Source: Bacteroidota bacterium
GTDB taxonomy: Bacteria; Bacteroidota; Bacteroidia; NS11-12g; UBA9320
Reading direction: 5' to 3'
Length of the DNA stretch: 64,000 bases
NCBI GenBank assembly: GCA_013359235.1
Contig: JABWCE010000007.1
Coordinates: 26,609-90,608, forward strand
Positions 5,283 through 60,546 of the stretch are shown here, in pieces (position 1 is the stretch's first letter; each line of letters starts with the position of its first letter). Both the position numbers and the translations under genes were made by a program. Under the pieces are notes generated by a model that saw nothing but the letters and a program-made list of their open reading frames with translations, was not told the origin of the DNA and ran no database searches.

Positions 5283-5287
5283 TTCTT

Positions 5288-7414: not shown

Positions 7415-7433
7415 TATTTTTTATGTAAAGCTA

Positions 7434-8270
7434 TCAGGCTACAACTGCCTGTTTTTCTTTAAGTTTTATATGTCTGAAACCGCCCCATAATGCAGCACCA
7501 ATTGCACCTGCATAAATTGCATCAGGATGAGAATGTATTTGATATGATTTTCCCATCTCTTCAAGTTGCTCTTCAAGAGCTTGTATCATACCTTTATTTA
7601 AAGCCATTCCACCTGTAACAACAATGGGCGATTCGGCTTTTAGCGAACTTAAAAGTTTTAGTATTCTGTTGGCAATTGAGATATGAATTCCTTTTATAAT
7701 ATCGGGAGTTGAAATTCCTCTCGAAACCATATTTATAACATCAGTTTCGGCAAGAACAGCACATATTCCTGAAGAAATTTCGGGATTTTGTGATTGCATT
7801 GATACATCGCCAACTTCTTCAATTGAAAGTCCTAAATATCTTGAAATATTTTCAACAAACTGCCCCGATCCCGAAGCACATTGTCCAGTCATTTTGTAAT
7901 CGTAAACTCTTGCATCTTCAGATATTTTTATTGCTCTTACATAAAGTGCTCCCATATCTACCACGGTAATTGCATTGGGGTATAGAAAATGGGCGCCTTT
8001 TGCATGAGTAGTCATTCCATAAAAATGTCCTCTTTTTCTTTTTACCAAATCACCCTCGCCTGTTGAAGCAAAGTAGGCAATATCTTCGTATTTGAGGTTG
8101 TGTTTTGATAGCATTTTCTGAGTCATTTCTTCTGCAACCTGCGATGGATCGCGTTTTCTTATCTTTTCGGTGTGTTTGTCTATAAGTTTGGGATTATCAG
8201 AATAATCAACAAGTACTAATTTTATGAAATTAGACCCAACATCAATCCCCATTGTATAAAAATTTTCCAT
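7434..8270 (-). CDS. BadF/BadG/BcrA/BcrD-family ATPase, short form (BcrD/activase-like)
   Basis: 278 aa. MGIDVGSNFIKLVLVD, MTGQCASGSGQFVE Cys motif and GGMALN. Lacks the insertion seen in the upstream paralog. Confidence 0.8.
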   Translation of the reverse strand: MENFYTMGIDVGSNFIKLVLVDYSDNPKLIDKHTEKIRKRDPSQVAEEMTQKMLSKHNLKYEDIAYFASTGEGDLVKRKRGHFYGMTTHAKGAHFLYPNAITVVDMGALYVRAIKISEDARVYDYKMTGQCASGSGQFVENISRYLGLSIEEVGDVSMQSQNPEISSGICAVLAETDVINMVSRGISTPDIIKGIHISIANRILKLLSSLKAESPIVVTGGMALNKGMIQALEEQLEEMGKSYQIHSHPDAIYAGAIGAALWGGFRHIKLKEKQAVVA

Positions 8271-8287
8271 ATCTATTATTTATTAAT

Positions 8288-9712: not shown

Positions 9713-9725
9713 TTTATTATTTTTT

Positions 9726-11027: not shown

Positions 11028-11076
11028 ATTCTTTAATCTTTTAAAATTTCTACTGCTTTTTCAAATTTATGTTTTT

Positions 11077-12240
11077 TTATGCCCAAAGTTTTATCGAGTC
11101 TGAAAATGTTCCGGCTTGTTCTTTTATTACTTTAAACTGCCCTGTATTTTCGTGATATTGGAAGTTTATATGCGGAACACCTGCCGCATCACATTCTTTT
11201 TGCATTTCGGGGCGGTCTAACAGAGCTGGGTCGCAAAAACTTGCAGCCGAAAATATAACACCATCAGCTTCTCTTCTTTTTACAAGTTCTACAAGTCTTT
11301 TACCTTTTGGATTTCCTACATCGTAATAGCACGAAGCAAAAGTACTTTGGTTGAGATATGCTTTTGTGATAGCTTCGAGGGGGTCGTTGGTATCTTCTTC
11401 AATATCTCCTTGTATCCATCGTGAGCCAAGCATAAAATCGTCGTCAACAATGTAGCATCCAGCCATTTCTATTGATTTTATTAATCCCACTGGCGGTTGT
11501 TCGCAAAACGAGCCTGAAACCACAACTCTAATATTATCCATTGCCTCGCCTCTTTCATTTCTTATTACATTTAATATTTTCTGAAGCATTTCATTGTGTT
11601 CTTCTACTGTAATGCAAATACCGGCTCTAAGAATATGATATGTTTCTACTGCCGAAAGCCTCCAAGGATATTTTTGCCTTATGTCGTAAATCTCTTCTAT
11701 TAACCTTCTGTTTATATTGTAAAGTTTTATTGCTTTATTAAGACCGTCAACACTTGCTTTTACACCATTTACATTGTAAATATCATCTATTACTTTTTCC
11801 ATTTCATGTTTGTAAAATGTACCTCCTATAAATGGGTCAAAGTTTTGTGCATAATCAAAATATCTTTGAAATTTACCTTTTTTTGACAACTTAAACATAC
11901 CTGATAGATTTCTTACGCAATCGCAAATTGCAGGAAATAAAAACCCATCAAAACCATTTAGATTATTATCCAAAGCCATTTCAATTATTCCACGAGGCAA
12001 ATGACAAATGTAAGATTGATAATATGCATCGCCTTTAATAATTTGTTTGCGGTCGCCTGTACCCATAATTCCCACAGCTATACCATTGGCTGCATGAATT
12101 ATTTCTCGAGGAACATATATTGGCAGATATCCAACAATTACTCTTTTTTCATCTTTGCTTTTCCATTGTTTTGCATGAGTAAATTCGAGGTCGAATGCTG
12201 TTTTTTCGCACCACGATAATATTTCTTCTAAACTATTCAT
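11077..12240 (-). CDS. HgdA/HgdB-BcrB/BcrC family subunit (BcrC-like, 387 aa)
   Basis: HGD-D-type sequence (VIVGYLPIYVPREIIHAANGIAVGIMG...ICDCVRNL). First gene of the operon. Confidence 0.7.
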   Translation of the reverse strand: MNSLEEILSWCEKTAFDLEFTHAKQWKSKDEKRVIVGYLPIYVPREIIHAANGIAVGIMGTGDRKQIIKGDAYYQSYICHLPRGIIEMALDNNLNGFDGFLFPAICDCVRNLSGMFKLSKKGKFQRYFDYAQNFDPFIGGTFYKHEMEKVIDDIYNVNGVKASVDGLNKAIKLYNINRRLIEEIYDIRQKYPWRLSAVETYHILRAGICITVEEHNEMLQKILNVIRNERGEAMDNIRVVVSGSFCEQPPVGLIKSIEMAGCYIVDDDFMLGSRWIQGDIEEDTNDPLEAITKAYLNQSTFASCYYDVGNPKGKRLVELVKRREADGVIFSAASFCDPALLDRPEMQKECDAAGVPHINFQYHENTGQFKVIKEQAGTFSDSIKLWA

Positions 12241-16444: not shown

Positions 16445-18280
16445 TTACAATTTCTCTGGCAGTGTGTATTTTCTTCCTTTATTTGCTTTTTTCAAATAAA
16501 TAAGTAAAGGTTCAAAATACTCAAGCATTGGTTTGGCACTCATTTCAGAACCTAAATGGTTTTTAAGATGTTGTCTCCAATCAACACTGGCACCTGGATA
16601 CATAAGATCTTTAAGAAACTTTCCTGTTTCTTTGCTTCCCCAGTAGTTGGTATTATGAGGGTCTTGTTTTAAAATTTGCTTAGAAATATGGTCATGAAAC
16701 TGGAATAAAAGTACATTGCTCATTGAGTAATCGTAATACTGTGCTGCATCATCGTTTATATGTGTTTTTGTGGCAGCATCGCAATATTCTTCACCTCTAT
16801 CTGTTGGAGGAATAATTCCCTGATATTTTTTAACATAATTCCACCATGTTTTGTTAAACTCATTTATAGTAATATTTTTTGAGTACAAATCATGTTCAAA
16901 TGCAGTCATAACTCCTGCACCCCAAGGAATATGAACAATAAAATCAAGCGATTCTTTAAGTAAGTTAATTGTATCGTTAGAGGTTTCGTCTTTCCCAATT
17001 AATCCAAAATTTTGTAAAAAAGGTTTTTGCAAAGCTGCAAGTCCAATCAAACTACCCATTGCCTCGTGATAAGCTCTATTTGCTCCACTTCTCAAAATCA
17101 AAGGGACATCATTGTTTGAATAGCTAATGTAATAATAAATATGCCCCAACTCATGTAAAACCGTACCCCACCACTCGGTATTAGGCTCAACACTCATAAG
17201 GCTTCTCACGTCTAAATTATTATCAATATGCCACGCACTTGCATGGTTGTTTTTTTTATACTTAACTTCGGGAGGTAAAGGATACAAACTTGATTTTTCG
17301 TAAAAAGATTTAGGTAGTTCAGAAAAACCGAGGCTTTTGTAAAATTCTTCACCTTGCTTTACTATCCATTCGGCATTTTTTGTTTTAAGTTTTTCGTCAA
17401 GATTAATTCCTGATGAATTCACCATGGCTGTCCAATCTTGTCCCCATCTGTTTGGTAGCCAATGAGCCGGAATGTAATCGGGTACATCTTGCTTGTATCT
17501 TGCAGCAAGTTCGTAACGTGCCCAAGTATGTAATTCTCGGTAAAGTGGCCATACATCATTAATCATCTGACTACAACTCTGCATAATTTCGTCTGATGTC
17601 ATGCCGTATTCAGAAGCCTGATAATCAAAAAAATCTTTATAGCCGAGAGCCTGAACTGATTTATTTCTTAAATTTCTTAAATTCTCAAGTCCGTTTTTCA
17701 ATGTTTTTCCAACTTCTTTGCTTGTACTCCATACTTTTAGTCTTTCTTCAAGTTTATTTGATTTTCTTAAAATATCGTCAATATTGTTTGTAGTTACCTC
17801 TTTGTTGTCAATCAAATATTTATATCCATATAATAACCCTATTTGATTTGTTTCTGCTTTAATTTTTTGCTTTACTATATCGCTTACAGTTTCAGGATTG
17901 GCACCTGCCATAAAAAGAATTGTTTCAAGTTGTTTTACTTGTAAGGGTGATAATTTATCCTTTGTTTTCAGGTATTTTCGGGCTTTTTCAATATTAATTT
18001 TGCTACCTGTAAATTGTGCAAATTTTTCGGCTGCATCGCTTGCTTGTTTTGATGTAATAGAATCTCCTTCAATAATCATTGTGTTTAGTTTCCATTGAGC
18101 TTCATTGTTTACAGTAAGCAATTTTTGAAATTCAATATTGTACGAATCAAGATATTTTTGAACTTCGTTTTGAAGTTCCTTATTTTCATTGGTTTTATTA
18201 CAATTCATATTTGTCATCAAAATTATTGCTATCATAAAAAACAAAATTTTTAAATTTATTTTTTTTAAATTCTCTTTCAT
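16445..18280 (-). CDS. M2-family peptidyl-dipeptidase (angiotensin-converting-enzyme-like), secreted
   Basis: 611 aa with signal peptide. Zinc site VLHELGHIYYY (ACE HEMGH-type) plus a downstream Glu ligand. Size matches a single ACE domain. Confidence 0.75.
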   Translation of the reverse strand: MKENLKKINLKILFFMIAIILMTNMNCNKTNENKELQNEVQKYLDSYNIEFQKLLTVNNEAQWKLNTMIIEGDSITSKQASDAAEKFAQFTGSKINIEKARKYLKTKDKLSPLQVKQLETILFMAGANPETVSDIVKQKIKAETNQIGLLYGYKYLIDNKEVTTNNIDDILRKSNKLEERLKVWSTSKEVGKTLKNGLENLRNLRNKSVQALGYKDFFDYQASEYGMTSDEIMQSCSQMINDVWPLYRELHTWARYELAARYKQDVPDYIPAHWLPNRWGQDWTAMVNSSGINLDEKLKTKNAEWIVKQGEEFYKSLGFSELPKSFYEKSSLYPLPPEVKYKKNNHASAWHIDNNLDVRSLMSVEPNTEWWGTVLHELGHIYYYISYSNNDVPLILRSGANRAYHEAMGSLIGLAALQKPFLQNFGLIGKDETSNDTINLLKESLDFIVHIPWGAGVMTAFEHDLYSKNITINEFNKTWWNYVKKYQGIIPPTDRGEEYCDAATKTHINDDAAQYYDYSMSNVLLFQFHDHISKQILKQDPHNTNYWGSKETGKFLKDLMYPGASVDWRQHLKNHLGSEMSAKPMLEYFEPLLIYLKKANKGRKYTLPEKL

Positions 18281-18374: not shown

Positions 18375-19787
18375 CTAATTTGAATCCCACCAAACAGGAA
18401 CTGACATATCAGAAACTATTGTGGCGTTAGGATTGTACTGTCTTTCTTCTAAAATATTTGGCAGCCTGCGAGGTATTTCGGTAGTTGCACCTGTAGCTTT
18501 GGTTAATGTAGGAAAACCGGTACGTCTCCAATCATTATACACTTCTATTTGAGTAAACAATGCAATATACTTTTGATTCATTATTTTCTCTAAAGTAATA
18601 GTTGAAGCATCTTCAGAAGCATTTGCTGTAATGTAAGCTGCATCCGGTGCACTTCCGGTTACTTTAGTAATGTGTTCAATTACTGCATCATTATATGCTT
18701 TAGCAGCACCGGCTTTGTCTGTCCCGAGTTTTGCTTCGGCTTCCAAAAACTTGGCTTCAACATAAGTAATAAGTGGCAATGATGCATCGGGTGAAGCATA
18801 ATAATTTCCAATTGTAGATACTTTGCTTGCATAAGCTATCATTTCAGCTTCGCCAGCAGGGGTTCCCAAATAAGCGGTAGTATCACTCAAAGCACAATAC
18901 GAAGGCAAACGAGGGTCATTTATTGCATTCATCATATTTACAAGTTTTGCACCCATTCTTATATAACCTTCTCTTTCAACTTTACAGAATGCATACCATT
19001 GGTTGTATTCGTTTGCATTTGTACCGAAAATCATGTTGCAATCATCATCACTACCAGCCAACCCGGCAGTATATGCTGCAGTAAGGGCATCAAGTGTTTT
19101 TTGTGCTGCAGTAGAACTTTTTTTGCTGATTCTCATTTCATATCTGGCTTTAAGCATCCATGCTGTTCTTATCCACTTATCTTTGTCGCCTCCGAAAATA
19201 TAATCGTCAGCACCTGGCAATAAGATGTTTTTGCTATCGTCTTGTCCCAAATCTGCAATTGCTTCTGTAAGTAATGTTTGAATTGCTTTTATTACATCTT
19301 CTTGTTTGTCATATACAGGCTTTCTTGATGCCTCGGTATATTCTTCACCTTTTAAAGCTTGACTGTACGGTACATCACCCCAAAGATCGGTAGCAGCACC
19401 AATCATTAAAGCTCTCAATACTTTTGCAATTCCGTTATAGCGTGGGTTGGCAGCACCGGCAGTTTCCATTAATTTTTTTGTATTAATTAAACCACTTGAA
19501 TACAAATTTTGCCATTCATTGTCATAATCACCTTCTACCATACCATATTTTTCATAAATAAAAGCTTGGTCGGTATTTCCAGAGCTTTGTTGAGTAAAGA
19601 TAGATGCAGTTCTTGACAAGTTTCCGCCATAAGCTGCAAAAACAGCTAATTCGCAATTTGATAATAATAATGCAGCAGTAACTGAGCCTGGAGAGTTTGG
19701 AGAAATTTTATCTCCGTCTGTAAATTTTTTACATCCTTGTGAAATTACAAGTAATGATATTGCTATTGTTATAAATAATTTTTTCAT
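18375..19787 (-). CDS. susD: SusD/RagB-family nutrient-binding outer-membrane lipoprotein
   Basis: 470 aa, lipoprotein signal (…VISQGC), immediately downstream of the SusC gene. TPR-like SusD composition. Confidence 0.8.
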   Translation of the reverse strand: MKKLFITIAISLLVISQGCKKFTDGDKISPNSPGSVTAALLLSNCELAVFAAYGGNLSRTASIFTQQSSGNTDQAFIYEKYGMVEGDYDNEWQNLYSSGLINTKKLMETAGAANPRYNGIAKVLRALMIGAATDLWGDVPYSQALKGEEYTEASRKPVYDKQEDVIKAIQTLLTEAIADLGQDDSKNILLPGADDYIFGGDKDKWIRTAWMLKARYEMRISKKSSTAAQKTLDALTAAYTAGLAGSDDDCNMIFGTNANEYNQWYAFCKVEREGYIRMGAKLVNMMNAINDPRLPSYCALSDTTAYLGTPAGEAEMIAYASKVSTIGNYYASPDASLPLITYVEAKFLEAEAKLGTDKAGAAKAYNDAVIEHITKVTGSAPDAAYITANASEDASTITLEKIMNQKYIALFTQIEVYNDWRRTGFPTLTKATGATTEIPRRLPNILEERQYNPNATIVSDMSVPVWWDSN

Positions 19788-19807
19788 GATTATATCCTCC
19801 TATCTAA

Positions 19808-22800
19808 TTAAAAGTTTGCTTTAAGACTAAAAATCCATGATTTCAAACCGGGGTTATTAAAGTAATCAAAACCACCGATATTAGAACCTGCACCGGTTAA
19901 ACTTGTTTCAGGATCAACACCTTTATATTCTGTTTTCAACCATACGTTTTTGCCTACAATTCCTAAATCAATTGACTTTACATATTTTTCAATTTGCTTA
20001 ATTTTAATATTATAAGAAATTCCAAGTTCTCTTAGCCTCACCCATGAAGCATCTTGCATTGCATTTTCTGATGCATAAGAACCTCCATCACCCTGATATG
20101 TTTGCCAATATGAAGAAGCAGAAACTGGAATATCATTAGTTGTGCCATCGCTTTGTTTTACACCTTCAATAATGTAGTATCTGTTTCTGTCGGCAGATTC
20201 ATCTGTTCTACCCATTCTGTTTAAACGGGCGTAAGTTCCATTCCAAATTTCACCACCTTGTCTAATATCAAACAGACCTGTTAAACGAACTCCTTTAAAA
20301 TTGAATGAGTTTCTAATACCCATCATCCAGTCGGGATAAGGGTTTCCTAAGTTACCTTTTTGCGGGTCAACTGCTGGTAGTCCGTTTGTCTTAATTAATA
20401 ATTGTCCCTGGTCGTTTCTCAACCATTTTGAGCCATATATTACGCCAAATGGTTCACCAACTATTGCATAAGCTGAATTAGAAGTAAATGCTGCTTCGGG
20501 CGATAATTCTTCAACACCATTTCCAAGTTTCAATACCTTGTTATTGTTTTTATTGAAGTTTAATGATATATCCCAGCTAAAGTTTTTATCTTTATATGGA
20601 GTTCCCGAAGCAATTATTTCAATTCCTTTATTTTCCATTTCGCCAGAATTAGTGTACAATGCTCTAAAACCTGATGATGGAGCTACCGGAATTGATAGAA
20701 TTATATTTTTTGATTTTTGATTATACCAAGTAAAGTCAAATCTCAATTTTGAATCAAAAAATCTTAAATCTAAACCTATTTCGGTTGATGATGTCGTTTC
20801 AGGTTTAATATTTGGGTCATTTAATGTATTGCTTATTCCAAATCCATTTTGTGAAAGGTATGGAAATCCTAAGCCTGAGGTGAAACCATCAGTAAATGTT
20901 GGTTTTGCATAATAATTTTGTGTGCGGTAAGGTGAAGGACCTTTTCCTGCCTGTGCATAGGCTAAACGAACTTTACCAAATGTAAACCATTTTTGTTTTA
21001 CAAAGTCTGTAAATAAAAATGCAAGTGATGTAGATGGATAGAATATGGTTTTTGAGAATGATGACCATCTGTCTTGACGACCGGTAACATTTAAAAACAA
21101 ATAATCTTTAAAACTCAAATTCAAATCGCCAAAAACTCCTGTCTTCTTAAGAACAGCATAAGATCCATTAGCATAAAGATTTGAAGCGTTTGATAGATTA
21201 TAATAATTTGGGATTGTAAGGTCTCTACCTCTCAAAAACTGGTCTTCAGATTTTTCGTATTGTACATTGCTGCCTATTGCCAAACTTCCAACTATATCAT
21301 CGGTCAAACTTCTTTTGAAAGTTGCAATAACGTCCTGATATACATATCTGTATGTCTGAATATTTTGATTAATTTCTCCTCCCGGAGCATTATCTGGTTG
21401 GTTTGAACCTATTGAGAATATAGAAACACGTTTATCAGTATAAACATCAGTACCCAAGCGGTAGTTCAAATCCATGAATGAGAATGGAGATGCTTTAAAA
21501 TTAATATTTCCATACATACGATTTACATCTGTAGTGTATGGGTTATTTCTTACACTCCAGTGTGGATTGTCATATAACGGATACCATAAACGTTGTGATC
21601 CATCAACATTTGTCCAACCGTTGGGACCTGTGCTTGTTGGGTCATCTAACCTGTAATCTGTAGGAGTTCTAGTAAGCCCAAGCATTACACCCGCAAGGTT
21701 ACTTCCGTTTTGCACCAATGTACCGCCTGAATTTATATAACTAAATGATGTTCCGAAAGAGAATTTATCGCTTATTTTATGGTCAGCATTTACAGTAATT
21801 GTATTGCGTTTATATTCAGAGTTTGGAATAATACCATCTTGTTTAAGATTAGCAAAAGACAAACGCAATGAAGATTTTTCGTTGAATGCATTAAGTGTAA
21901 TACTATTGCTGAAAACTTCGCCGCGTTTAAAAAACTCTTCTAAATTGTCATAAGCTTTATCAGAAGCAATTGCAGGTCCCCAACTGTTAGGAGTAGAAGC
22001 ACTGAATTTTCCAACTTCTACAACAGAATCAAGTTTTCCGGTAAGTTTGCTTTTTAATAAAGCACCTCCACCATTTCCTTGTCCGTATTTAGTTTGAAGT
22101 TCGGGAAGTTTATTCACTTTCTGCAATTCAATACTTGTAGAATATACTACACCAAAGCCCCTGCCTTTGCCTTTAACTCTTGCTTTTTTGGTAGTGATAA
22201 TAATAGCACCACTTGCAGCCTGTGCACCGTACAATGCAGCAGCAGCAGGACCTTTCAATATATTAATAGATTCGATATCGTCAGGATTTATGTCAATACC
22301 TCTGTTTGAGTTATTAACTCCCTGAAGGTTCATATTAAAAGGATAATCACCGGCAACGGTATTTGACGTACTGTTGTCAATAGGTACACCATCAACTACT
22401 ATAAGTGGTTGATTGTTCCCTTCAAAAGTTACATTACCGCGTAAAAGAATTTTACTTGAAGCACCAGGTGTGCCGCTTGTACCTTGAACAAAAACTCCTG
22501 CTGCTTTGCCTGATAAGCCTTGAATGACATTTTGTTCGCCAGATTCTGCAACCTCTTTACCATCTACTTTTTGAGTTGAATAACCTAAAGATTTGGCTGA
22601 TTTTTCGAGTGCAACTGCAGTTACTACAACTTCATCCAATCCTTTTCCGTCATCCTCCAAACTAACGTCAATTGTAGAATTACTGCCTACGGCAATTTCA
22701 ACTGTTTTCATCGAAATGTAAGAAAAAATCAATACTGATCTTGATGACGGGACAGATACTGTATAATTTCCGTTAATGTCTGTTGAAGTACCAATTGTGG

Positions 22801-22948
22801 TACCTTTTACTACTACTGAAACACCCGGAATAGCTTCTTTTTCGGAAGCTGATGTTACTTTACCGGTAATTGTCCGGTTTTGTGCTACTGATGGAATTAC
22901 CCATCCTACGAGCAATAATCCTAAAAATAATATGTAATACTTTTTCAT
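19808..22948 (-). CDS. susC: SusC/RagA-family TonB-dependent outer-membrane transporter
   Basis: 1046 aa. Signal peptide, carboxypeptidase-regulatory-like N-domain, TonB box/plug, and C-terminal aromatic residue ending ...KANF. Confidence 0.9.
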   Translation of the reverse strand: MKKYYILFLGLLLVGWVIPSVAQNRTITGKVTSASEKEAIPGVSVVVKGTTIGTSTDINGNYTVSVPSSRSVLIFSYISMKTVEIAVGSNSTIDVSLEDDGKGLDEVVVTAVALEKSAKSLGYSTQKVDGKEVAESGEQNVIQGLSGKAAGVFVQGTSGTPGASSKILLRGNVTFEGNNQPLIVVDGVPIDNSTSNTVAGDYPFNMNLQGVNNSNRGIDINPDDIESINILKGPAAAALYGAQAASGAIIITTKKARVKGKGRGFGVVYSTSIELQKVNKLPELQTKYGQGNGGGALLKSKLTGKLDSVVEVGKFSASTPNSWGPAIASDKAYDNLEEFFKRGEVFSNSITLNAFNEKSSLRLSFANLKQDGIIPNSEYKRNTITVNADHKISDKFSFGTSFSYINSGGTLVQNGSNLAGVMLGLTRTPTDYRLDDPTSTGPNGWTNVDGSQRLWYPLYDNPHWSVRNNPYTTDVNRMYGNINFKASPFSFMDLNYRLGTDVYTDKRVSIFSIGSNQPDNAPGGEINQNIQTYRYVYQDVIATFKRSLTDDIVGSLAIGSNVQYEKSEDQFLRGRDLTIPNYYNLSNASNLYANGSYAVLKKTGVFGDLNLSFKDYLFLNVTGRQDRWSSFSKTIFYPSTSLAFLFTDFVKQKWFTFGKVRLAYAQAGKGPSPYRTQNYYAKPTFTDGFTSGLGFPYLSQNGFGISNTLNDPNIKPETTSSTEIGLDLRFFDSKLRFDFTWYNQKSKNIILSIPVAPSSGFRALYTNSGEMENKGIEIIASGTPYKDKNFSWDISLNFNKNNNKVLKLGNGVEELSPEAAFTSNSAYAIVGEPFGVIYGSKWLRNDQGQLLIKTNGLPAVDPQKGNLGNPYPDWMMGIRNSFNFKGVRLTGLFDIRQGGEIWNGTYARLNRMGRTDESADRNRYYIIEGVKQSDGTTNDIPVSASSYWQTYQGDGGSYASENAMQDASWVRLRELGISYNIKIKQIEKYVKSIDLGIVGKNVWLKTEYKGVDPETSLTGAGSNIGGFDYFNNPGLKSWIFSLKANF

Positions 22949-37145: not shown

Positions 37146-37916
37146 TTAAAATTTTGGTTTTCTTTTTTCGTTAAATGCGTTAGTTCCTTCAATAAAATCT
37201 GATGTGCCGAATGAGTTTCCAAATTCTTTATTTTCTGTTTCGAATCCGCTTTGTGTACTTTCAAAATGTTTGTTTACACATTCAATAACTTTTGCAACTG
37301 CCGAAGGCGATTTTTCAGTTATTTTATTTATTAATTCTTTGCAATACTCCAATAAATTTTCAATGGGTACAATTTTAGTTATCAAACCATATTCGAGGGC
37401 TTGCTGAGCATTGATTATATCTGCCGTAATAAGCAATTCAAGTGCCCTACCCTTCCCAATAAGTTGTACAAGTCTTTGTGTTCCGCCATATCCGGGTGGC
37501 AATCCAAGATTTACCTCGGGTTGACCAAATTTTGCGTTTTCTGATGCAATTCTTATGTGGCACGACATTGCAAGTTCATTTCCACCACCAAGGCTAAATC
37601 CATTTACTGCAGCAATTGTCGGAATTTTTGAATTTTCTAAAGTATTCATTACCGAATGACCATCTATACTCATTTTTGTTCCTTGCTCATCATTAAAATC
37701 TTTGAATTCTGCAATATCAGCACCTGCGGCAAATGCTTTGTTTCCTTTTCCGGTTAAAATTATTCCTCTAATTTCCTTATTGTTTTGTACACTCAATACT
37801 GCATGTTTAATTTCTTGAAGTGTTTCTATGTTCAGTGCATTAAGTTTGTTTTCTCTGTTTATTGTGATTATAAAAGCATTATTTTCTTGTTTGGTTATGA
37901 TATTATTATATTTCAT
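37146..37916 (-). CDS. enoyl-CoA hydratase/isomerase (crotonase) family protein
   Basis: 256 aa. GKGNKAFAAGADI oxyanion region and GGGNELAMSCH. Confidence 0.8.
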   Translation of the reverse strand: MKYNNIITKQENNAFIITINRENKLNALNIETLQEIKHAVLSVQNNKEIRGIILTGKGNKAFAAGADIAEFKDFNDEQGTKMSIDGHSVMNTLENSKIPTIAAVNGFSLGGGNELAMSCHIRIASENAKFGQPEVNLGLPPGYGGTQRLVQLIGKGRALELLITADIINAQQALEYGLITKIVPIENLLEYCKELINKITEKSPSAVAKVIECVNKHFESTQSGFETENKEFGNSFGTSDFIEGTNAFNEKRKPKF

Positions 37917-37974: not shown

Positions 37975-39195
37975 TCAATCTTGTCTGTTGTCATCTTTCT
38001 TGGGCGTAGGTGCTTTCTTTTTATCTTCAGAAATTTCAATTTCCGATGTTTTTTTAATGATTTTTTTAGCTGTATCTGATTTTTCAATAGGTGGAGAAGT
38101 TGGATTTGGTTTGCCGTTTTGCTTTGGAGCATTGGGTTTAACACCGTTTGGCGTTTTTTGTTTTATTTGAATTTTTGGCGGCTCTTTTTTCTGTATTTCA
38201 ATTCCTGATTTAAAAACCAATATTCCTTTAGTTTCAAATGAATCGGGTTGGTAATTTAAAGTGGCAAAAATCTTTGTATTGTCATTACTAAAAGCAACTC
38301 CTCTGGCATTTGTACCAATATTTTCAATCAATTTTATTATTTTTTGTTCATCAATATCCCAAACAATAATACTACCATCGTTACTACCTGATACAGCATA
38401 TTTACCGTTTAAAGAAATAGCTACTGATATAACTTTCCAATCATGACCTGTCAATGTTTTTTCAAGTTTGCGGGTTTCGGTGTTCCAAACTTTTACTGTT
38501 TTATCGCTTGATGCAGAAATTAATTTTTTGTTATCTCTACTCAGTGCAATGTAATTTACTTGATCAAGGTGTCCTTCGTAAGTACCAATTAGTTTACCGG
38601 TAATATCATATTTTTTTATAATATTGGTATTGTCAGAGCAATATATACTTCTTCTATCTCTACTTACTGCAATACATGATACAGGATTTGTGTTATTAAT
38701 TTTTTTATCTTTTGCTTTGTATATATCATAATAGCTTATTGTTCCATCATTACTGCCGGTAAATAATAATTTACCGGATGGGTCAATTACTATTGAATTT
38801 ACCGACATTCTATGAATAAAAATGGTTTTATCTTTTATGACAGAACCGAATGAATCAATCAAATAAGTAAATACTTTGCCATCAGTTCCTCCGGTTGCAA
38901 TTACTTTGGCATTTGGTGTTATGGAAATACAATTTACTGCCGAATAATGATCTAATAACGAGCTAATGGGAGTATAAAATGAATCATTAGTAAATAAATT
39001 TACCATTCCATCCCAAGATCCCGAAGCTATGATTTTTCCATTTTCTGAAACTGCCATACATTCCAAATCATCAGAATGTCCTTGTAATTTGAATAAAATT
39101 TCAGATTTAGGTTGTTGTGCAAAACCTACAATGGTAAAGTATGAAAATATTATAGCAAGTAAATGCTTCACAGGACAATTGAAAATGAATTTCAA
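37975..39195 (-). CDS. secreted WD40-repeat (beta-propeller) protein with Lys/Pro-rich C-terminal tail
   Basis: 406 aa, signal peptide, multiple GS/SGS-D-x-V/I-WD-like repeats, C-terminal 70 aa low-complexity K/P-rich. Confidence 0.7.
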   Translation of the reverse strand: MKFIFNCPVKHLLAIIFSYFTIVGFAQQPKSEILFKLQGHSDDLECMAVSENGKIIASGSWDGMVNLFTNDSFYTPISSLLDHYSAVNCISITPNAKVIATGGTDGKVFTYLIDSFGSVIKDKTIFIHRMSVNSIVIDPSGKLLFTGSNDGTISYYDIYKAKDKKINNTNPVSCIAVSRDRRSIYCSDNTNIIKKYDITGKLIGTYEGHLDQVNYIALSRDNKKLISASSDKTVKVWNTETRKLEKTLTGHDWKVISVAISLNGKYAVSGSNDGSIIVWDIDEQKIIKLIENIGTNARGVAFSNDNTKIFATLNYQPDSFETKGILVFKSGIEIQKKEPPKIQIKQKTPNGVKPNAPKQNGKPNPTSPPIEKSDTAKKIIKKTSEIEISEDKKKAPTPKKDDNRQD

Positions 39196-46279: not shown

Positions 46280-47260
46280 CTAAGTGCTGCAAGGGTCTTC
46301 TATTTCAAGACATACGAGTTTCCATGTTTCATTATGTTTTATGAAATAAAAACCGAGATTTCCATCGGTACTGTAAATAAAAGCAATAATTGTTTTTTCG
46401 AGTTCTTTTATCTCATTTATTTCATTCATTAGAGGTATTTCTTCTTCAGGGCTGAATTCTTTTAAATCTTCGATAGATTTTGAAATTTTATTAAAATTTT
46501 CTTCAATTCCACCATAACAGCCTCTTTTGTTGTATAAATCTGCCATATCGCAGTTTATCTCTGGTTTTTCTCCTTCAATAAACGAAAAATTTGATTTTTT
46601 AAATGATTCGAGTGCTATTTTCCAAGGGATTTCTTCGGCAAATTCTGATATATCATTTATTTTAACAACTGCAGTAATAAATCCGGGTTTTGATAAATAA
46701 AACAAATTAGTAGAATCAGAAATATATTCTTTTAAAGATTTTTCTCCATCTTTTTTTAATTTACTTATAAATTCTAATGCAAAATTGTTAAAATTTTGAG
46801 TTTTAAGATTTGTATTAATTTTGTTTTTTTCATTCTTTTCTTTTTCTATTTGTTTTTCAAAAATCTCTAACGAATCACCACCTATTACATTTCTAATTAA
46901 AATTTGATGAATTTCAACCTTTTTTATTAATTGTTCATACAGTTTTTTTAATTTTTGATTTTCTTCTGTAACAGACTGATTAAGGTTTTTTAACACAATA
47001 AGTTCATTGTTTAGGTCAATTACATATTGCTTGATATCCTTCATTTCGCTCGAAAGCCTTTTGATTTCTGAAAATGACAATGAATCTCTGAATTGCAGAT
47101 TGTTAATTTCACTTTTTTGAACTTTTAAAAGCATTTCTAAAGTATCTATTTTGCTTTTCAATTCTTTTTTCTTGGGACCAAATTGTGAAAAACCTAAATT
47201 TATAGAAAAAACAAATATTAATAATATTATAAAATTCATGTATTTCATATAATAACACAT
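46280..47260 (-). CDS. hypothetical secreted coiled-coil protein
   Basis: 326 aa, signal peptide, heptad-rich middle, Cys-containing C-terminal domain. Confidence 0.5.
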   Translation of the reverse strand: MCYYMKYMNFIILLIFVFSINLGFSQFGPKKKELKSKIDTLEMLLKVQKSEINNLQFRDSLSFSEIKRLSSEMKDIKQYVIDLNNELIVLKNLNQSVTEENQKLKKLYEQLIKKVEIHQILIRNVIGGDSLEIFEKQIEKEKNEKNKINTNLKTQNFNNFALEFISKLKKDGEKSLKEYISDSTNLFYLSKPGFITAVVKINDISEFAEEIPWKIALESFKKSNFSFIEGEKPEINCDMADLYNKRGCYGGIEENFNKISKSIEDLKEFSPEEEIPLMNEINEIKELEKTIIAFIYSTDGNLGFYFIKHNETWKLVCLEIEDPCST

Positions 47261-47324: not shown

Positions 47325-48860
47325 ATGAATTCAGAAGAAAAGTTTAAAAACATTATTTCACATTGCAAAGAATATGGATTTATTTTCCCTTCAAGCGAAA
47401 TTTACGATGGACTTGCAGCGGTTTACGATTATGGGCAAAATGGGGTTGAACTTAAAAATAATTTGAGAACTTATTGGTGGAAAAGCATGGTACAGTTTCA
47501 TCAAAATATTGTTGGTATTGATGCTTCGATTTTTATGCAACCTCGTGTGTGGAAAGCAAGTGGCCATGTTGATGGTTTTAACGACCCTATGATTGATAAC
47601 AAAGACAGTAAAAAAAGGTATAGAGCTGATGTGCTTATTGAAGAATTTATAGAAAAAATTAACTCAAAAATTGATAAAGAAGTTGAAAAAGCACGTTCAC
47701 GTTTTGGCGAAAAATTCGATTTTCAAACATTTGTGAATACAAATGAAAAAACACTGGGTTACAAAAGAGAAATTGCCAGAATTGAGGAAATTTTAAAAAA
47801 TTCATTAGAAAAAAGTGATTTTTCAAGCCTAAAAAATCTTATTGATGAACTTGGAATTGTATGCCCAATAAGCGGTTCGAAAAACTGGACCGAAGTACGC
47901 CAATACAACCTAATGTATAGTACTCAAATGAGTGCTACCGATGGTGAAACCGAACTTTACCTAAGACCCGAAACTGCTCAGGGAATTTTTGTAAACTTTC
48001 TTAATGTGCAAAAAACAGGCAGGATGAAAATTCCGTTTGGTATTGCTCAAACGGGCAAAGCATTCAGAAACGAAATTGTTGCCCGGCAGTTTATTATGAG
48101 AATGAAAGAATTTGAGCAAATGGAAATGCAATTTTTTGTAAAACCTGGTACTGAATTACAATGGTACGAATACTGGAAAAAATTGAGACTTAAATGGCAT
48201 CTGTCTATTGGCACAAATTCAAACAACCTTAAATATCACGATCATTTAAAATTAGCGCATTACGCAAATGCAGCAGTAGATATTGAGTACAACTTTCCAT
48301 TTGGTTTTAAAGAGGTAGAGGGCATACATAGTCGTACAGATTTTGATTTATCAAGGCATCAGGAATTTTCGGGTAAAAAAATTCAGTATTTTGATAACGA
48401 AACCAACAGCAATTACACCCCTTATGTAATAGAAACTTCAATAGGCTTAGACAGGTTATTTTTGATGCAACTTTGCGAAAACCTGGTAGATGAACAGCTT
48501 GAAAATGGCGAAACTCGTACAGTTTTTAAGGTAAATCCAATACTTGCTCCCTACAAAATTGCCATTTTGCCTTTAGTAAAAAAAGATGGTTTGCCTGAAT
48601 TTGCCGAAAAAATTTACAACGAATTGAAATTTGATTACAATTGTTTTTACGAAGAAAAAGACACTATTGGCAAGAGATATCGCAGGCAAGATGCTATCGG
48701 AACCCCATTTTGCATAACTATTGATTATGATAGCTTAAAAGACAATACCGTAACTTTGAGAAACCGCGACACTATGGTTCAAGACCGAATAAATGTAAAT
48801 GAAATAAACAAGTTTCTTTTTGAAGAAATAAACTGGAAAAAATTACTTATAAAATTATAA
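47325..48860 (+). CDS. glyQS: glycine--tRNA ligase (dimeric class II type)
   Basis: 511 aa. [29 protein letters not shown]-terminus and class-II motifs. Confidence 0.9.
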
Positions 48861-51800
48861 TGGATTTCAATGAGTTTGAAAAAAATTTGAAAACAGACTG
48901 GCTCAACAAAGTAAAAAAAACACTTGATGCAAATGAAAATATTGATTTTTTAAGCTATAAACCTTCGGCTGATGTACAAGTTCCTTCGTATTGCACAGTA
49001 GAAGATTGTTTTGATATAATATCAAATAAAAAAATTAAAAATTGTATAAATGCTGAAAAATATCAAACAAATATTTTTACAAATTCAGGTTTTGATAATT
49101 TTCCCATAAGCTTGCTTGAAGGAGTAGATGCTATTGATGTTATAAATTTCAATAAAGAAATTCCTGAAAATTTTTCTTTCAAAAATATTCATCTAAACAT
49201 TGAAAAACCAGAACTACATAAGGTAAAAAACATATTAAGCAAATGTAAAAAAGGCTCTGTTACTATTACAGGAATAAAAAGTGATGAAGAATATGTATAT
49301 GCTCATAAAACACTTTTAAATACCAATCCAGATGGATTTAAGATGTTTTGTATTGATTTAACACAAATTAAAACAGATGAAATAAAACAAATAGCAGATG
49401 AGGCAACAAACAAGCTTAAATTAATATTTGGTAAAATCATTAAAAATGAAACAGAGCTAATAAAATCAATATTTTTCAGGCATACACTTAATGATGACTT
49501 TTATTTAAATCTTTCATTAATTAGAGCAATAAAGCAGATTTGGTATAATTTTTTAGAAACCAATAAAATTAAAATTGTTGAACCATTTATAATTTCACAA
49601 ACCTGTAATTTAAGTGAAACAGTTAATGAAACAGAACAAAATCTTATAAGAATTACTACTATGGCATTGGCTTCAATTGCAGGTGGTACAAATGTATTTT
49701 CTGCAAGGGGTTTAAATTTTGAAAACAAGTTTAAACCTGAGTTTTATTTTAGGATGCAAAAAAATATTCAATTATTGCTATTAGAAGAAAGCTTCATTAA
49801 TAATGTAACCGATCCTGCAAGAGGAAGTTATTTTTATGAAATATTAACCTATAAACTTTCAAATATTGAAAAACTATATGAAACACGATACGAAAACAAT
49901 GAGTTCATCAAAACATTTTCTAATGATGATGTAAAAAATATTGGTTTAGAAAAATTTGGAGCCGGCACATCTCCATTTTTAAGAGGACCGTATCCAACTA
50001 TGTATTTACAAAAACCATGGACAGTAAGACAATATGCAGGATTTTCAACTGCCGAAGAATCAAATGCATTTTACAAGCGAAACTTAGCTGCAGGTCAGAT
50101 GGGTTTATCTGTAGCATTTGATTTAGCCACACACAGAGGATACGACAGCGACCATCCCCGTGTAAGTGGAGATGTAGGAATGGCAGGTGTTGCAATAGAC
50201 ACAGTTGAAGATATGAAAACTCTTTTTAACGAGATACCCCTTGAAAAAATGAGTGTAAGTATGACAATGAATGGTGCAGTAATTCCAATAATGGCTTTTT
50301 TTATTACAGCCGCTGAAGAACAAGGTGTATCACCCGAAAAACTTTCAGGAACCATACAAAATGACATACTTAAAGAATTTATGGTTCGCAATACATTTAT
50401 CTACCCACCACAGCCTTCAATGCGTATTATCGGTGATATTTTTAAATACACATCTGAAAAAATGCCAAAGTTCAACAGCATAAGTGTTAGCGGATATCAT
50501 ATTCACGAGGCTGGAGCATCTGCCGAAATAGAACTTGCCTACACTCTTGCCGACGGGCTTGAATATGTAAAAACCGGTATAGCATCAGGGTTAAAGATAG
50601 ATGAATTTGCTCCGCGTATTTCATTTTTTTGGGGTATTGGCATGAATTTTTTTCTTGAAATTGCTAAAATGCGTGCCGGCAGACTTTTATGGTCAAAATT
50701 GATAAAGCAATTTAACCCTAAAAACGAAAAATCTTTAGCTCTGCGTACTCATTGCCAAACATCCGGCTGGAGTCTTACAGAACACGACCCATATAACAAT
50801 ATAGCCCGCACATGTATTGAAGCAATGGCTGCTGTTTTTGGAGGTACACAAAGTTTGCACACTAATGCACTTGATGAAGCAATTGCTTTACCAACAGATT
50901 ACTCAGCCCGAATAGCCAGAAACACTCAACTTTACCTTGCAAAAAACACAAATATAACCAAGGCAATTGACCCATGGGGAGGCTCATATTACATTGAATT
51001 TTTGACAAACCAAATAGCACAAAAAGCATGGAAATTAATTGAAGAAATTGAATCGCTTGGAGGTATGGCAAAAGCTATAGAAACAGGTTTACCTAAATTG
51101 AAAATTGAAGAATCTGCAGCTAAAAAACAAGCTGGAATTGATAGCGGAGCCGAGATTATAGTAGGTGTAAATAAATATGTATTTTCAGAAAAATCAAGTT
51201 TCGAAATTTTGTCAATAGACAATAACCAAGTGAGAAACAAACAAATTGAAAAACTTACTAAATACAAAGCAAACCGCAACCAAGCTGAACTAAATACAGC
51301 ACTTGAAAATATTACTTTAGCAACACAAACAGGAAAAGGAAATCTACTCGAACTTGCTATTGATGCAGCAAAAAAGAAAGCTACATTGGGAGAAATTTCA
51401 TTAGCTTTGGAAAAAAGTTATGGCAGATATAGCCCAAAAATCAGAATGATAATGGGTGTATATAAAAATGAATCGCAAATGGAAGAAAACTATAATAATG
51501 CCGTAGAGCTTGCTGATAAATTTGCAAGAAAAGATGGCAGACGCCCCAGAATTATGATAGCAAAAATGGGACAAGACGGGCATGACCGCGGAGCAAAAGT
51601 AATTGCAACTGCTTTTGCAGATATAGGATTTGATGTGGATATTGGTCCATTGTTTCAAACACCTCACGAAGTAGCAAAACAAGCAGTAGAAAATGATGTA
51701 CATTGTCTTGGAATTTCAAGTCTTGCGGGGGGGCATAAAACTTTAATTCCCGAAGTAGTTGAAGAACTAAAAAAATTTGGAATGAATGATATAATAATTA

Positions 51801-51928
51801 TTGTAGGTGGTGTAATTCCTGAAAAAGATTACAAAGCACTTTACAAGGCTGGGGCACATTTTATTTTTGGACCAGGTACCAATATTTCAAAAGCAGCAAG
51901 CGATGTATTAATGAAGTTGCTTGAATGA
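48860..51928 (+). CDS. methylmalonyl-CoA mutase, single-chain form: N-terminal MutA-like (beta-subunit-like) domain fused to the full catalytic subunit with C-terminal B12-binding domain
   Basis: 1022 aa. Residues ~1-360 resemble a cofactor-less MutA TIM barrel ([29 protein letters not shown]). Then the canonical MutB ([37 protein letters not shown]). The C-terminal Rossmann carries the B12 motif QDGHDRG. The ATG overlaps the glyQS stop (TAATG). Confidence 0.8.
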
Positions 51929-51930: not shown

Positions 51931-52772
51931 TTATTTTAACATTTCATCAATCACTTCTTTTTCAAATTCGCGAAAAACTGGTTTTAAAAAACTTTCAGAA
52001 TCTGTACCGTAGTTTATAAACAAATTAAGAGTAAAATTCTTGTTAGGAAACCAGAATAAATCGGCTGTGTAGCCCAAGTCTCTACCTGAATGCCCTATTC
52101 CGTAATCGGCTCCGCGGTCATTAAATTTTTTCATAATTCCAAGTCCATAATTATTAATTTCGTCGGGCGGTCCATAGGTTTGCATCAATGCAAGAGATTT
52201 ATCAGACAACACGGTTTTGTTTATCAAAACTCCTTCAATAAATTTTTGTAAATCGTACACATTCGAAAATATGCCATTAAAGCCATTTCCGCTTCCAGGC
52301 AATATATTCGATACGTTTGACAATTGCTTTTTGTTGTACAAATCAAAATAACCTTGTGTTATAATTTCGGGCAAATCTTCGCGACCTTGATAATAGGTAT
52401 CATTCATTCCCAAAGGGTTTAATATTTTTTCTCTAAGCAACTGATGATGTGGCTTTCCACTGGCTTTTTCGATTATCATACTTATCAAAATTGTGTTTGT
52501 GTTTGAATAAACCGATGATTGAAAATACCCAATTTAAAATCATAATAAATAGTTGACTTATTTTTAGTTTTTATATTTTTTAATAACCCGGCCGAAAAGC
52601 CTAAATGATACTTTGAAGTGAACTAGTTTTTTACTCCGGTAAATGGTAAATAAGTTTGGTTATTAAAAATTGTAAATTGGCAAGATTCAAAGTTTTTGAT
52701 AATATTTTTTTGGGCTTGCGATTTGTTTACAAACAGTGAGATTATCAATAACAGCAATATTTTTCTATTCAT
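51931..52772 (-). pseudogene. disrupted serine hydrolase (beta-lactamase/PBP-like family) gene: signal-peptide fragment plus C-terminal fragment
   Basis: A 49-aa ORF (52623-52772) encodes only a signal peptide (MNRKILLLLIISLFVNKSQAQ...). A separate 185-aa ORF (51931-52488) encodes the C-terminal half of a class-C beta-lactamase-like fold (GHSGRDLGYTADLFWFP). The catalytic SxxK N-terminal half is absent. Confidence 0.5.
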
Positions 52773-58875: not shown

Positions 58876-60546
58876 TTAACCGTTCATGCTGTTTAAAAAC
58901 TCCATGTTGTCTTTTGTGCTTTCCATGTGTTTTAGCATTGTATTCATGCTTTCTTCGGGATTCATATCAGCCATATAGTTTCTTAAAATCCACATTTTTT
59001 GCAAAACGCCTTTGTCTAACAATAAATCTTCGCGGCGAGTACCTGATGAAATGATATCTATTGCCGGATATATGCGTTTGTTACTCAATTTGCGGTCTAA
59101 CTGCAATTCCATATTGCCGGTTCCTTTAAATTCTTCAAAAATAACTTCATCCATTTTTGAGCCGGTTTCGGTAAGAGCAGTGGCAATTATAGTTAAAGAA
59201 CCTCCAAATTCTATTTTACGAGCTGCACCAAAAAACCTCTTTGGTTTTTGCAAAGCATTTGCATCTACACCACCTGATAGAATTTTGCCTGAAGCAGGTT
59301 GAACAGTGTTATAAGCTCTTGCCAAACGTGTAATTGAATCGAGTAAAATCACTACATCGTGTCCGCATTCTGTAAGTCGTTTTGCTTTTTCGAGTACAAT
59401 ATTTGCAAGTTTTACATGTTTGTCAGCAGGTTCATCAAAGGTGCTTGCAACTACTTCGGCTTTCACGCTTCTTGCCATGTCTGTTACCTCTTCAGGGCGT
59501 TCATCAACTAATAGAATAATCATATAAACCTCAGGATGATTAGCAGCAATTGCATTAGCAAGCCCTTTTAACAATGTTGTTTTACCGGTTTTGGGTTGTG
59601 CAACAATTAAGCCTCTTTGCCCCTTTCCTATAGGCGAAATCATGTCAATAATTCTATTTGAAAAATGACGTGGATTATCGCACAAATTCAATTTTTCTTC
59701 AGGAAATAGCGGAGTTAAATGCTCAAATGAAACGCGGTCTCTAACCATTTCGGGGCTTTTTCCGTTTATTGTTTCAACTTTTATCAGAGCAAAGTATTTT
59801 TCACCTTCTTTGGGAGGTCTAATTGTACCTTTTACAGTATCGCCTGTACGTAGCCCGTGATGTTTTATTTGTGAGGGTGAAATATAAACATCATCAGGTG
59901 ATGGCATATAATTGTAATCAGACGAACGCAAAAATCCATATCCATCGGGTATAACTTCGAGTACGCCTTGTGTTGTTACATTGCCTTCTGTTTCAAGAAA
60001 GTTTATTAAAGCTTCGTCAAATAATTTTTGATTTTTCTGCTGTTCTTGTCTTGTATTTTCGTTTCGCTGGGGTTGCTGCACTTGTTCAGCAATTACTAAT
60101 TCTTTCTCTTCAGGTACTTCATTGGCTAAAGGCATTTCGAAAGTATCATTTATAATTGTTTCACTTTCGGTACTTGTTTCTTCTGTAATAAGCTCCGGAA
60201 GCGGTTCAGATTCTATTACTTTTTTATTTCTTTTGCGTTTTTTTTGTTCAGGATCAGTTGTTGTTTCTTCAATAATGGGTAATTCAATACTTGGCTCTTG
60301 AATTATTTCTTTTTCATTATCGTTTTTTTCTGTTTTTGCCTTAGTTTTTTTGGCTTTTGCAGGTTTTTTTTCTTCTAATGGCGGTTCTACAGTTTGGTTT
60401 GGACCAAAAAGAAATTTTTCTTGTTCAGATATGATGTAATTTATCAAATCGTCTTTAGAACTTTTTTTATCTTCTATGCCAAGTGCTGCAGCAATTTCGT
60501 TGAGTTCTGCAATTGACATAAGTTCGAGTGATTCACGCTTAAACAT
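58876..60546 (-). CDS. rho: transcription termination factor Rho with extended N-terminal insertion
   Basis: 556 aa. N-terminal SAP-like region, ~130-aa acidic/low-complexity insertion, OB-fold RNA-binding domain, and RecA-like domain with [15 protein letters not shown]. Confidence 0.9.

Follow-up and report, generated by a model that had tools for sequence, protein, structure and literature searches.

A predicted single-chain methylmalonyl-CoA mutase with a barrel-only MutA-like domain fused in front of MutB in a Bacteroidota bacterium

The mutase locus and its glyQS neighbor

The window, that is the whole 64-kb stretch of DNA that was analyzed, carries on its forward strand a glycyl-tRNA synthetase gene followed by a long mutase ORF. 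The features discussed below are as follows, residue numbers referring to the 1022-aa product:

47325..48860, + strand: glycyl-tRNA synthetase, glyQS type, class II, 511 aa (Pfam tRNA-synt_2b plus HGTP_anticodon)
48858..48862, + strand: TAATG stop/start overlap (TAA 48858-48860, ATG 48860-48862, shared base 48860)
48860..51928, + strand: ORF of the predicted fused beta-alpha methylmalonyl-CoA mutase, 1022 aa plus stop, read and translated directly
48860..49861, + strand: MutA-like TIM barrel, predicted to be catalytically dead and without a B12 domain of its own, residues 1-334 (NCBIfam, PDB, Foldseek and hhalign)
49343..49345, + strand: internal Met162 codon, the GenBank start (NUM31717.1, 861 aa, begins MFCIDLTQ)
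49862..50014, + strand: junction, consisting of a short linker plus the MutB N-terminal arm, residues ~335-385 (alignment and AF2 model)
49901..51424, + strand: putative catalytic acyl-CoA mutase TIM barrel, residues 348-855 (Y392, Q500, R510, Y546-H547)
51536..51925, + strand: predicted cobalamin-binding Rossmann-like domain, C-terminal to the barrel, residues ~893-1022
51575..51592, + strand: DxHxxG motif, D906-G-H908-D-R-G911, read from the sequence

The ORF lies exactly where the preliminary description of this DNA had placed it, and the Pfam and NCBIfam domain matches agree with its description as an in-frame, single-chain MutA-like/MutB mutase. The assignment of the upstream gene is complemented by a GlyRS_ins_1 match on an identical locus (L018). 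The glyQS-mutase synteny is kept in several related loci (L001, L020, L022, L024, and L025), with a junction that reads TAATG in L001 and L022 and ATGA in L024, and that consists of a spacer of 1-3 nt in L020 and L025. In L017, a more distant fused relative, the mutase adjoins dnaA, with no glyQS juxtaposition. Many same-strand neighbors in the 64-kb window also overlap or sit within 20 nt of each other. The 1-nt overlap had been taken to imply translational coupling between glyQS and the mutase; the overlap itself is present as described, but we rejected a special coupling of the two genes, since their juxtaposition is kept in the clade while the overlap is not, and tight spacing is usual in the window. 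In a compact genome, such an overlap is no more than the usual close spacing of genes, and coupling is possible but not implied. Rfam gave no match in the 64-kb window, including none to a cobalamin riboswitch.

Domain composition of the 1022-aa protein

The mutase ORF is matched by both PF01642 and PF02310, and Pfam places MM_CoA_mutase at residues 348-855 (E 2e-244) and B12-binding at residues 897-1012. With the MutB equivalog model NF006944, the protein reaches 1297 bits (cut-off 876), with residues 344-1021 aligned to model positions 38-715 of 721. The MutB part, which had been called complete, thus possesses both the barrel and the B12 domain but is more precisely nearly complete, as it starts at position ~38 of the model. 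It is about 60-65% identical to human MMUT, and its phmmer E value is 1e-295 with human MMUT and 3e-285 with MutB of P. shermanii. The segments RQY392AGF, TIQ500, R510 (510N), and SGY546H547 each line up with the corresponding motif in human MMUT and are invariant in the fused homologues. Active-site residues of this type tell methylmalonyl-CoA mutases (MCM) from isobutyryl-CoA mutases (ICM) and other mutases; we take Tyr392, Gln500, Arg510, and Tyr546-His547 to be the counterparts of P. shermanii Tyr89, Gln197, Arg207, and Tyr243-His244. The DxHxxG motif of the C-terminal domain is invariant in 56 fused homologues, and its role is presumably the one known from MCM, with P. shermanii His610 as the counterpart histidine; His908 is accordingly predicted to be the lower axial cobalt ligand, in the base-off/His-on mode. 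Judged by its sequence, the segment from residue ~345 to 1022 is a canonical MutB-type methylmalonyl-CoA mutase (EC 5.4.99.2).

The N-terminal domain is a more distant member of the same fold. A second, weaker Pfam MM_CoA_mutase match covers residues 199-334 (E 1e-19), and the best NCBIfam match of the domain is TIGR00642 mmCoA_mut_beta, with 61 bits, far under the cut-off of 617. This low score, together with the missing C-terminal domain of MutA, makes "beta subunit" a statement of homology rather than of full family membership. The best PDB sequence match is M. tuberculosis MutA (6oxc_B), and the sequence matches are confined to positions ~260-400 of MutA chains that are 616-637 aa long. 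The AF2 model of the domain (pLDDT 90) has 6oxc_B, 6oxd_B, and 1req_B as its top Foldseek matches (E 1e-11, TM 0.68-0.76), and hhalign aligns the domain with the MutB barrel at a probability of 99.8%. In the latter alignment, Tyr392 faces Lys67, Tyr546-His547 face Thr168-Gln169, and the segment of Gln500 and Arg510 faces a gap. Profile and fold comparison therefore agree with the similarity to MutA proposed in the preliminary description, and the cofactor and catalytic residues are absent.

The domain ends at about residue 334, lacks both the linker and the C-terminal flavodoxin-like domain of MutA, and is directly followed by MutB sequence. It is a barrel of ~335 aa, rather than the ~360 aa estimated earlier, and does not amount to a whole MutA; the same short form is free-standing (338 aa) in the syntenic relative L024. 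A profile search of a 5.8-billion-protein database with this domain gave at least 10 matches (the word pre-filter being saturated), MutA-type proteins of 457 and 624-632 aa with a best E of 1e-73, a result that supports kinship with MutA and is no taxonomic census of fusions. The best matches in a 1.84-billion-protein representative library are free-standing barrel-only homologues of 338-380 aa, of which there are many; this search of 50%-cluster representatives returned no fused relatives, which probably sit under MutB-like cluster heads, and is unfit to count fusions. The strongly conserved residues of the domain are R222, G275-G276, R298, N302, E310, D318, G322, and Y324, and an N-terminus of the form MxFxEF..W..K.LKG is conserved in at least 55 fused homologues. 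From sequence and model together, residues 1-334 can be described as a barrel-only, catalytically dead MutA-like domain.

Continuity of the reading frame

The syntenic locus L024 shows what the unfused state looks like. It has the order glyQS, a 338-aa mutA, a TAA stop codon plus 2 nt and a change of frame, and a 705-aa mutB, and it shares with the present locus downstream genes of 820 and 805 aa. Its MutB is 75% identical to the MutB part of the fused protein and its MutA 35% identical to residues 1-334 over the full length. The stop codon falls at the position matching the junction of the fused protein, a zone whose length varies in the homologue alignment and where pLDDT dips to 65-80. As L024 is truly split, a single indel would interconvert the two states, and the fusion might be an artefact, separate mutA and mutB genes having been wrongly joined through a collapsed frameshift or the loss of a stop codon. 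However, the identical 1022-aa ORF is called on eight contigs that were assembled independently and from different runs (SRR14055729 and SRR29850213 among them), and it is thus not a collapsed frameshift. The GenBank contig of the metagenome-assembled genome has the same open frame, and NUM31717.1 is 100% identical over its 861 aa. Furthermore, at least 55 homologues at 50-75% identity are fused in frame, and the relative L025 has a continuous ORF of 1036 aa. An assembly or sequencing artefact is thereby effectively refuted.

The frame could also be genuine and its first 160-345 codons an untranslated, decaying remnant of mutA, with a product of 861 aa, or of MutB size, made from an internal start. 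GenBank indeed annotates 861 aa here and 704 aa in L025, and the N-terminal domain is AT-richer (25% GC versus 36% for the MutB part), and its conservation is much lower. Against decay, the N-terminal frame holds no stop codon in 345 codons, whereas about 33 are expected from composition-matched shuffles. In this DNA of 32.5% GC, the frame is thus open far beyond chance; the other two frames across the same region hold 31 and 54 stops. The extreme N-terminus and ~15 positions vary little or not at all among 56 homologues, the modeled domain has the mutase-barrel fold with high confidence, and the L024 orthologue, a free-standing protein, is equally long. Taken together, these properties make an untranslated remnant very improbable, and point to the 1022-aa chain as the product; its AF2 model as a single chain has a pLDDT of 86 and a pTM of 0.91.

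We rejected Met162 as the start codon, as it would halve the N-terminal barrel: the first 161 residues are conserved, belong to a barrel that is modeled with confidence, and have their equivalent in the free-standing orthologue. The GenBank start is thus probably mis-called, and the truncated gene models (861 aa here, and 704 aa instead of 1036 aa in L025) need correction. Such truncation at internal methionines means that the fused architecture is under-reported.

Comparison with known mutases and proposed function

The closest likeness is to the MutA/MutB heterodimers of P. shermanii (PDB 1REQ) and M. tuberculosis (PDB 6OXC), whose alpha and beta chains rank first, in sequence and in fold, among the matches to the protein's two halves. 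They likewise combine a catalytic alpha subunit, with a TIM barrel, a His-on B12 domain, and the same residues, with an inactive homologous beta barrel. MutA of these enzymes totals about 600-640 aa and has, after the barrel, a linker and, at the C-terminus, a flavodoxin-like domain that binds no B12. The present protein differs from the heterodimers in being one polypeptide of beta-alpha order, with a beta part of ~335 aa against 616-638 aa, and this part, devoid of linker and flavodoxin-like domain, fails the TIGR00642 cut-off. Unlike classical MutA, it is fused in frame instead of being a separate polypeptide encoded beside mutB; the pair in L024, in the same neighborhood, retains a separate gene, parted from mutB by the stop codon and frame change. 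In the homodimeric MCM (human MMUT, E. coli Sbm/ScpA, and Sinorhizobium BhbA), the partner barrel belongs to another subunit that is itself active, whereas here it is predicted to be dead, truncated, and covalently attached.

IcmF, too, is an acyl-CoA mutase in one chain (about 1000-1100 aa) that has a mutase barrel and a B12 domain, arranged in the order B12 domain, MeaB-like GTPase, barrel. The present protein has, in contrast, a C-terminal B12 domain, no GTPase domain, and specificity residues of the MCM type (Tyr392 and Arg510). Pfam finds no MeaB, cobW, or GTPase domain in the 1022 aa, and the IcmF model NF045497 scores 300 bits against a cut-off of 1500 bits. We therefore rejected an IcmF-like fusion, as its domain order differs and a GTPase domain is lacking, in keeping with the distinction from IcmF drawn in the preliminary description.

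These properties lead us to propose, with a probability of roughly 0.85, that the gene encodes an AdoCbl-dependent methylmalonyl-CoA mutase (EC 5.4.99.2) carrying both subunits in one chain, in the order beta-alpha. The substrate would enter the TIM barrel lined by Tyr392, Gln500, Arg510, and Tyr546-His547, His908 in the C-terminal Rossmann domain would hold AdoCbl in the base-off/His-on mode, and the predicted reaction is the interconversion of (R)-methylmalonyl-CoA and succinyl-CoA. The N-terminal domain would be a degenerate MutA barrel that has lost its catalytic residues and, in this lineage, never had a B12 domain of its own. It most likely serves only as a structural partner packed on the catalytic barrel, which is the role of MutA in the enzymes of Propionibacterium and Mycobacterium; from the high pTM and from homology, we infer that it packs like MutA. 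The architecture is a real but modest variant of a well-known enzyme; there is otherwise nothing unconventional about the chemistry, the family, or the pathway.

The N-terminal domain might do more than act as a scaffold. It might gate cofactor loading or repair where a MeaB-type G-protein chaperone is lacking, or bind a regulatory ligand. With a genuine MeaB (Pfam MeaB E 2e-70) as the query, tblastn finds nothing in the 64 kb at E<=10, and PF03308 matches none of the scanned window ORFs of at least 150 aa, as the earlier remark on the lack of an adjacent meaB would have it. The gene is also absent within 8-10 kb of every Bacteroidota mutase locus examined, fused or split, and lies directly downstream of mutB in loci of Polyangia, Vulcanimicrobiota, and Thermoanaerobaculia. 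This distribution, along with the conserved residue block from R222 to Y324, could favor an additional role. However, the block is common to all MutA and MutB barrels, so its conservation is probably structural, and meaB could sit elsewhere in the genome, outside the 64-kb window. Moreover, the split Bacteroidota loci also lack an adjacent meaB, and the absence is therefore not tied to the fusion, of which it had been listed as a feature; it is a trait of all Bacteroidota loci examined. We consider an additional role of the domain unlikely. The same low standing applies to the idea that the tethered beta barrel makes the protein a self-sufficient monomeric "heterodimer in one chain", able to load and retain adenosylcobalamin without a MeaB-type chaperone. 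Such a chaperone-free chain, if real, would explain the repeated fixation of the fusion in Bacteroidota, whose mutase loci never carry meaB. Genes for the epimerase, propionyl-CoA carboxylase, MeaB, and adenosyltransferase are all absent from the 64-kb window.

The subunit arrangements of methylmalonyl-CoA mutase listed in the literature consulted are the homodimer, the heterodimer, and the heterotetramer (bioRxiv 10.1101/637140). The single-chain form would, if active, be a fourth. It would also provide a naturally minimal beta partner of ~335 aa, which could help define the purpose of the inactive subunit, and might offer pathway engineering a convenient mutase encoded by one gene.

Distribution and origin of the fusion

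The fusion is not the rarity suggested at first: the same fusion was found in relatives, and fused proteins of 958-1248 aa make up at least 55 of the best 120 database matches. In a neighbor-joining tree of Bacteroidota MutB, fused and split forms interleave, the tree being rough and its "split" class including truncated annotations. A scan of genome contigs gave one fused species-representative genome (L001), with search patterns that were too specific to the query. We found no description of a MutA-MutB fusion in the open-access full-text literature, an absence that is no proof in itself. The fusion probably arose when a short mutA (~338 aa) and the mutB next to it lost the intervening stop codon and were brought into one frame by a small change; in close relatives, the two genes are still split within the same glyQS-mutA-mutB neighborhood. 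Split mutA/mutB genes are also present in Mariniflexile and Marixanthotalea (L004, L007, and L015), and the MutA of Flavobacteriaceae is longer, at about 462 aa.

The fused mutase gene and its junction with glyQS

Direct reading of the DNA gives two adjoining genes on the forward strand:

47325..48860 (+), glyQS, glycyl-tRNA synthetase of 511 aa with a class-II tRNA synthetase core and an anticodon-binding domain (Pfam)
48860..51928 (+), fused methylmalonyl-CoA mutase (MCM), 1022 codons

The GlyRS insertion domain is also matched in the same glyQS ORF on the identical locus from another assembly (L018). At the junction, ATTATAATGGAT, the TAA occupies 48858-48860 and the ATG 48860-48862, which bears out the one-base overlap (TAATG) reported in the preliminary description. 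The translational coupling read from this overlap is plausible, as is co-transcription, but would not be unusual: many same-strand neighbours in the window overlap by 4-20 nt or sit at most 20 nt apart, and the junction varies among relatives. The glyQS-mutase order is kept in the window's clade (loci L001, L020, L022, L024, and L025), with TAATG in the window, L001, and L022, ATGA in L024, and a spacer of 1-3 nt in L020 and L025; in a distant fused relative, L017, the order is not kept and the mutase adjoins dnaA. The overlap is a reflection of compact gene packing.

The first 345 codons of the mutase ORF contain no stop, versus a mean of 33 (minimum 16) in composition-matched shuffles, in a window of 32.5% GC, so chance does not account for so long an open frame. 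The other two frames carry 31 and 54 stops over the same stretch. The exact 1022-aa sequence is called on eight contigs assembled independently from different sequencing runs, and a search for the same fusion in relatives found fused proteins of 958-1248 aa in at least 55 clusters among the best 120 database matches, which together make an assembly or sequencing artefact extremely improbable. An N-terminus of the form MxFxEF..W..K.LKG is common to the fused homologues, and it is very unlikely that the N-terminal region is an untranslated remnant. In GenBank the product of this gene is NUM31717.1 ("MAG: Bacteroidetes bacterium"), only 861 aa long because its start is placed at Met162 (49343), which would halve the N-terminal barrel. 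Similarly, a 704-aa "MutB" is annotated within the continuous 1036-aa ORF (873..3983) of L025 (GCA_046154525.1); public annotation thus tends to shorten these genes.

The catalytic and MutA-like parts

By sequence, the C-terminal two thirds of the protein are an ordinary, complete MCM catalytic subunit, with two Pfam domains:

aa 348-855, MM_CoA_mutase (E 2e-244)
aa 897-1012, B12-binding

Against NF006944, the NCBIfam equivalog for methylmalonyl-CoA mutase, the protein reaches 1297 bits (cut-off 876) over model positions 38-715 of 721, and phmmer against the PDB retrieves human MMUT (E 1e-295) and P. shermanii MutB (about E 1e-285). The motifs RQY392AGF, TIQ500...510N (Arg510), SGY546H547, and GQD906GH908DRG911 are present and invariant across 56 homologues. 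Tyr392, Gln500, Arg510, and Tyr546-His547 correspond to P. shermanii Tyr89, Gln197, Arg207, and Tyr243-His244, and the last motif to the cobalt-ligand motif Asp608-x-His610-x-x-Gly. MCM is distinguished from isobutyryl-CoA mutase by Tyr89 and Arg207. The protein is not a fused isobutyryl-CoA mutase (IcmF): NF045497 gives 300 bits against a cut-off of 1500.

The likeness of the N-terminal domain to MutA, also proposed earlier, is confirmed by sequence, profile, and fold. Residues 199-334 alone match the Pfam mutase model (E 1e-19); the best NCBIfam family is TIGR00642, the MutA small subunit (E 6e-17, far under the cut-off), and by sequence no PDB chain matches better than 6oxc_B, the MutA of M. 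tuberculosis. When a profile was made from 11 diverse N-domains, it brought up MutA-type proteins of 457 and 624-632 aa, the best at E 1e-73. Modelled alone from 56 aligned sequences, residues 1-334 form an alternating beta/alpha barrel with a pLDDT of 90. Among PDB structures, Foldseek ranks three beta chains highest for this barrel: 6oxc_B, 6oxd_B, and 1req_B (E 1e-11, query TM 0.68-0.76). Profile-profile alignment with the barrel of the MutB part covers 337 columns (probability 99.8%, E 6e-29) and places Lys67 opposite Tyr392 and Thr168-Gln169 opposite Tyr546-His547, while leaving a gap opposite the Gln500/Arg510 segment. With its catalytic positions replaced or gapped, the N-domain is thus a homologous mutase barrel that is catalytically dead, like MutA.

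Origin of the fusion and comparison with known systems

The N-domain ends directly after its barrel, and the N-terminal arm of MutB comes at once. In L024 the mutase is encoded by two genes in the same neighbourhood as in the window, with glyQS upstream and an 820-aa PKD/CHU_C protein and an 805-aa TPR protein downstream. The first encodes a 338-aa MutA-like protein that aligns end to end with window residues 1-334 (35% identity), the second a 705-aa MutB that is 75% identical to the window's MutB part; they are separated by TAA plus two bases and differ in frame. The window protein is therefore an already shortened mutA joined end to end with mutB. The best N-domain matches in a representative library of 1.84 billion proteins are free-standing proteins of 338-380 aa, and in Flavobacteriaceae, Mariniflexile and Marixanthotalea among them, the two genes are separate (~462 and ~710 aa). 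A rough neighbor-joining tree was built from the MutB parts of the 120 matches, some of whose "short" entries are truncated annotations. In several clades, among them that of the window, it mixes fused with short forms, which suggests repeated fusion or fission.

The joining of subunits of a heteromeric enzyme into one chain is a common evolutionary event. Among known systems, the MutA/MutB heterodimers (1REQ, 6OXC) come closest, but the window protein is a single chain and its beta part is barrel-only: canonical MutA has 616-638 aa, whereas the N-domain lacks both the MutA linker and the C-terminal flavodoxin-like domain. Public databases contain fused sequences in abundance, which carry the generic label "methylmalonyl-CoA mutase"; full-text searches of an open-access library turned up no account of a beta-alpha MutA-MutB fusion, and a study of MCM cofactor selectivity names homodimers, heterodimers, and heterotetramers but no beta-alpha single chain (bioRxiv 10.1101/637140).

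Proposed mechanism and genomic context

Heterodimeric MCMs need the inactive beta barrel as a structural partner of the catalytic barrel. Most likely (probability about 0.85), the fused protein would act as a conventional AdoCbl-dependent methylmalonyl-CoA/succinyl-CoA isomerase, with the inactive barrel supplied in cis as that partner. The protein is presumably active; packing of the N-domain against the catalytic barrel within one chain is predicted by a model with a pTM of 0.91, and the role of the N-domain is probably purely structural. An added function of this domain, such as chaperone-independent cofactor handling, is unlikely.

As stated in the preliminary description, no gene for the G-protein chaperone MeaB adjoins the mutase. 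Across the 64-kb window, tblastn with a verified MeaB (Pfam E 2e-70) gave no match at E<=10, and no scanned ORF matched the MeaB family. The same query, serving as a positive control, finds meaB directly downstream of mutB in loci from Polyangia, Vulcanimicrobiota, and Thermoanaerobaculia, and at none of the Bacteroidota loci examined, fused or split; the absence of meaB next to the mutase is thus a lineage trait and no consequence of the fusion. The window contains no epimerase, propionyl-CoA carboxylase, or cobalamin riboswitch.

Other features of the window

Convergent with the mutase and 3 nt past its stop, a 185-aa beta-lactamase-fold ORF (51931..52488, -), also called in L018, matches profile positions 153-312 of 329 only and may be a truncated gene or have a mis-called start. 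A 326-aa ORF (46280..47260, -) without a Pfam or NCBIfam match keeps its place between rpsT and glyQS in L018, L020, L022, and L024 (319-325 aa there).

Genes of acyl-CoA metabolism are densely clustered at 475..12240 (-) and, in this Bacteroidota MAG, resemble an ATP-dependent radical dehydratase/reductase system:

475..1737 (-), thiolase
1747..3597 (-), ApbA/ketopantoate-reductase-like domain fused to a BcrAD_BadFG ATPase
4059..5282, 9726..11027, and 11077..12240 (-), three HGD-D paralogues (2-hydroxyacyl-CoA dehydratase / benzoyl-CoA reductase-like)
5288..7414 (-), ADP-forming acyl-CoA synthetase
7434..8270 and 8288..9712 (-), two further BcrAD_BadFG ATPases

A 611-aa protein (16445..18280, -) that matches Peptidase_M2, the family of angiotensin-converting enzyme, over the full length (E 2e-97) adjoins a SusC/SusD-like pair (18375..22948), and a 406-aa bacterial WD40 beta-propeller protein (37975..39195, -; WD40 E 2e-45) adjoins an enoyl-CoA hydratase (37146..37916). 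In the 556-aa Rho termination factor (58876..60546, -), residues 4-554 span a 413-position model, which implies an insertion of ~140 aa relative to the model.
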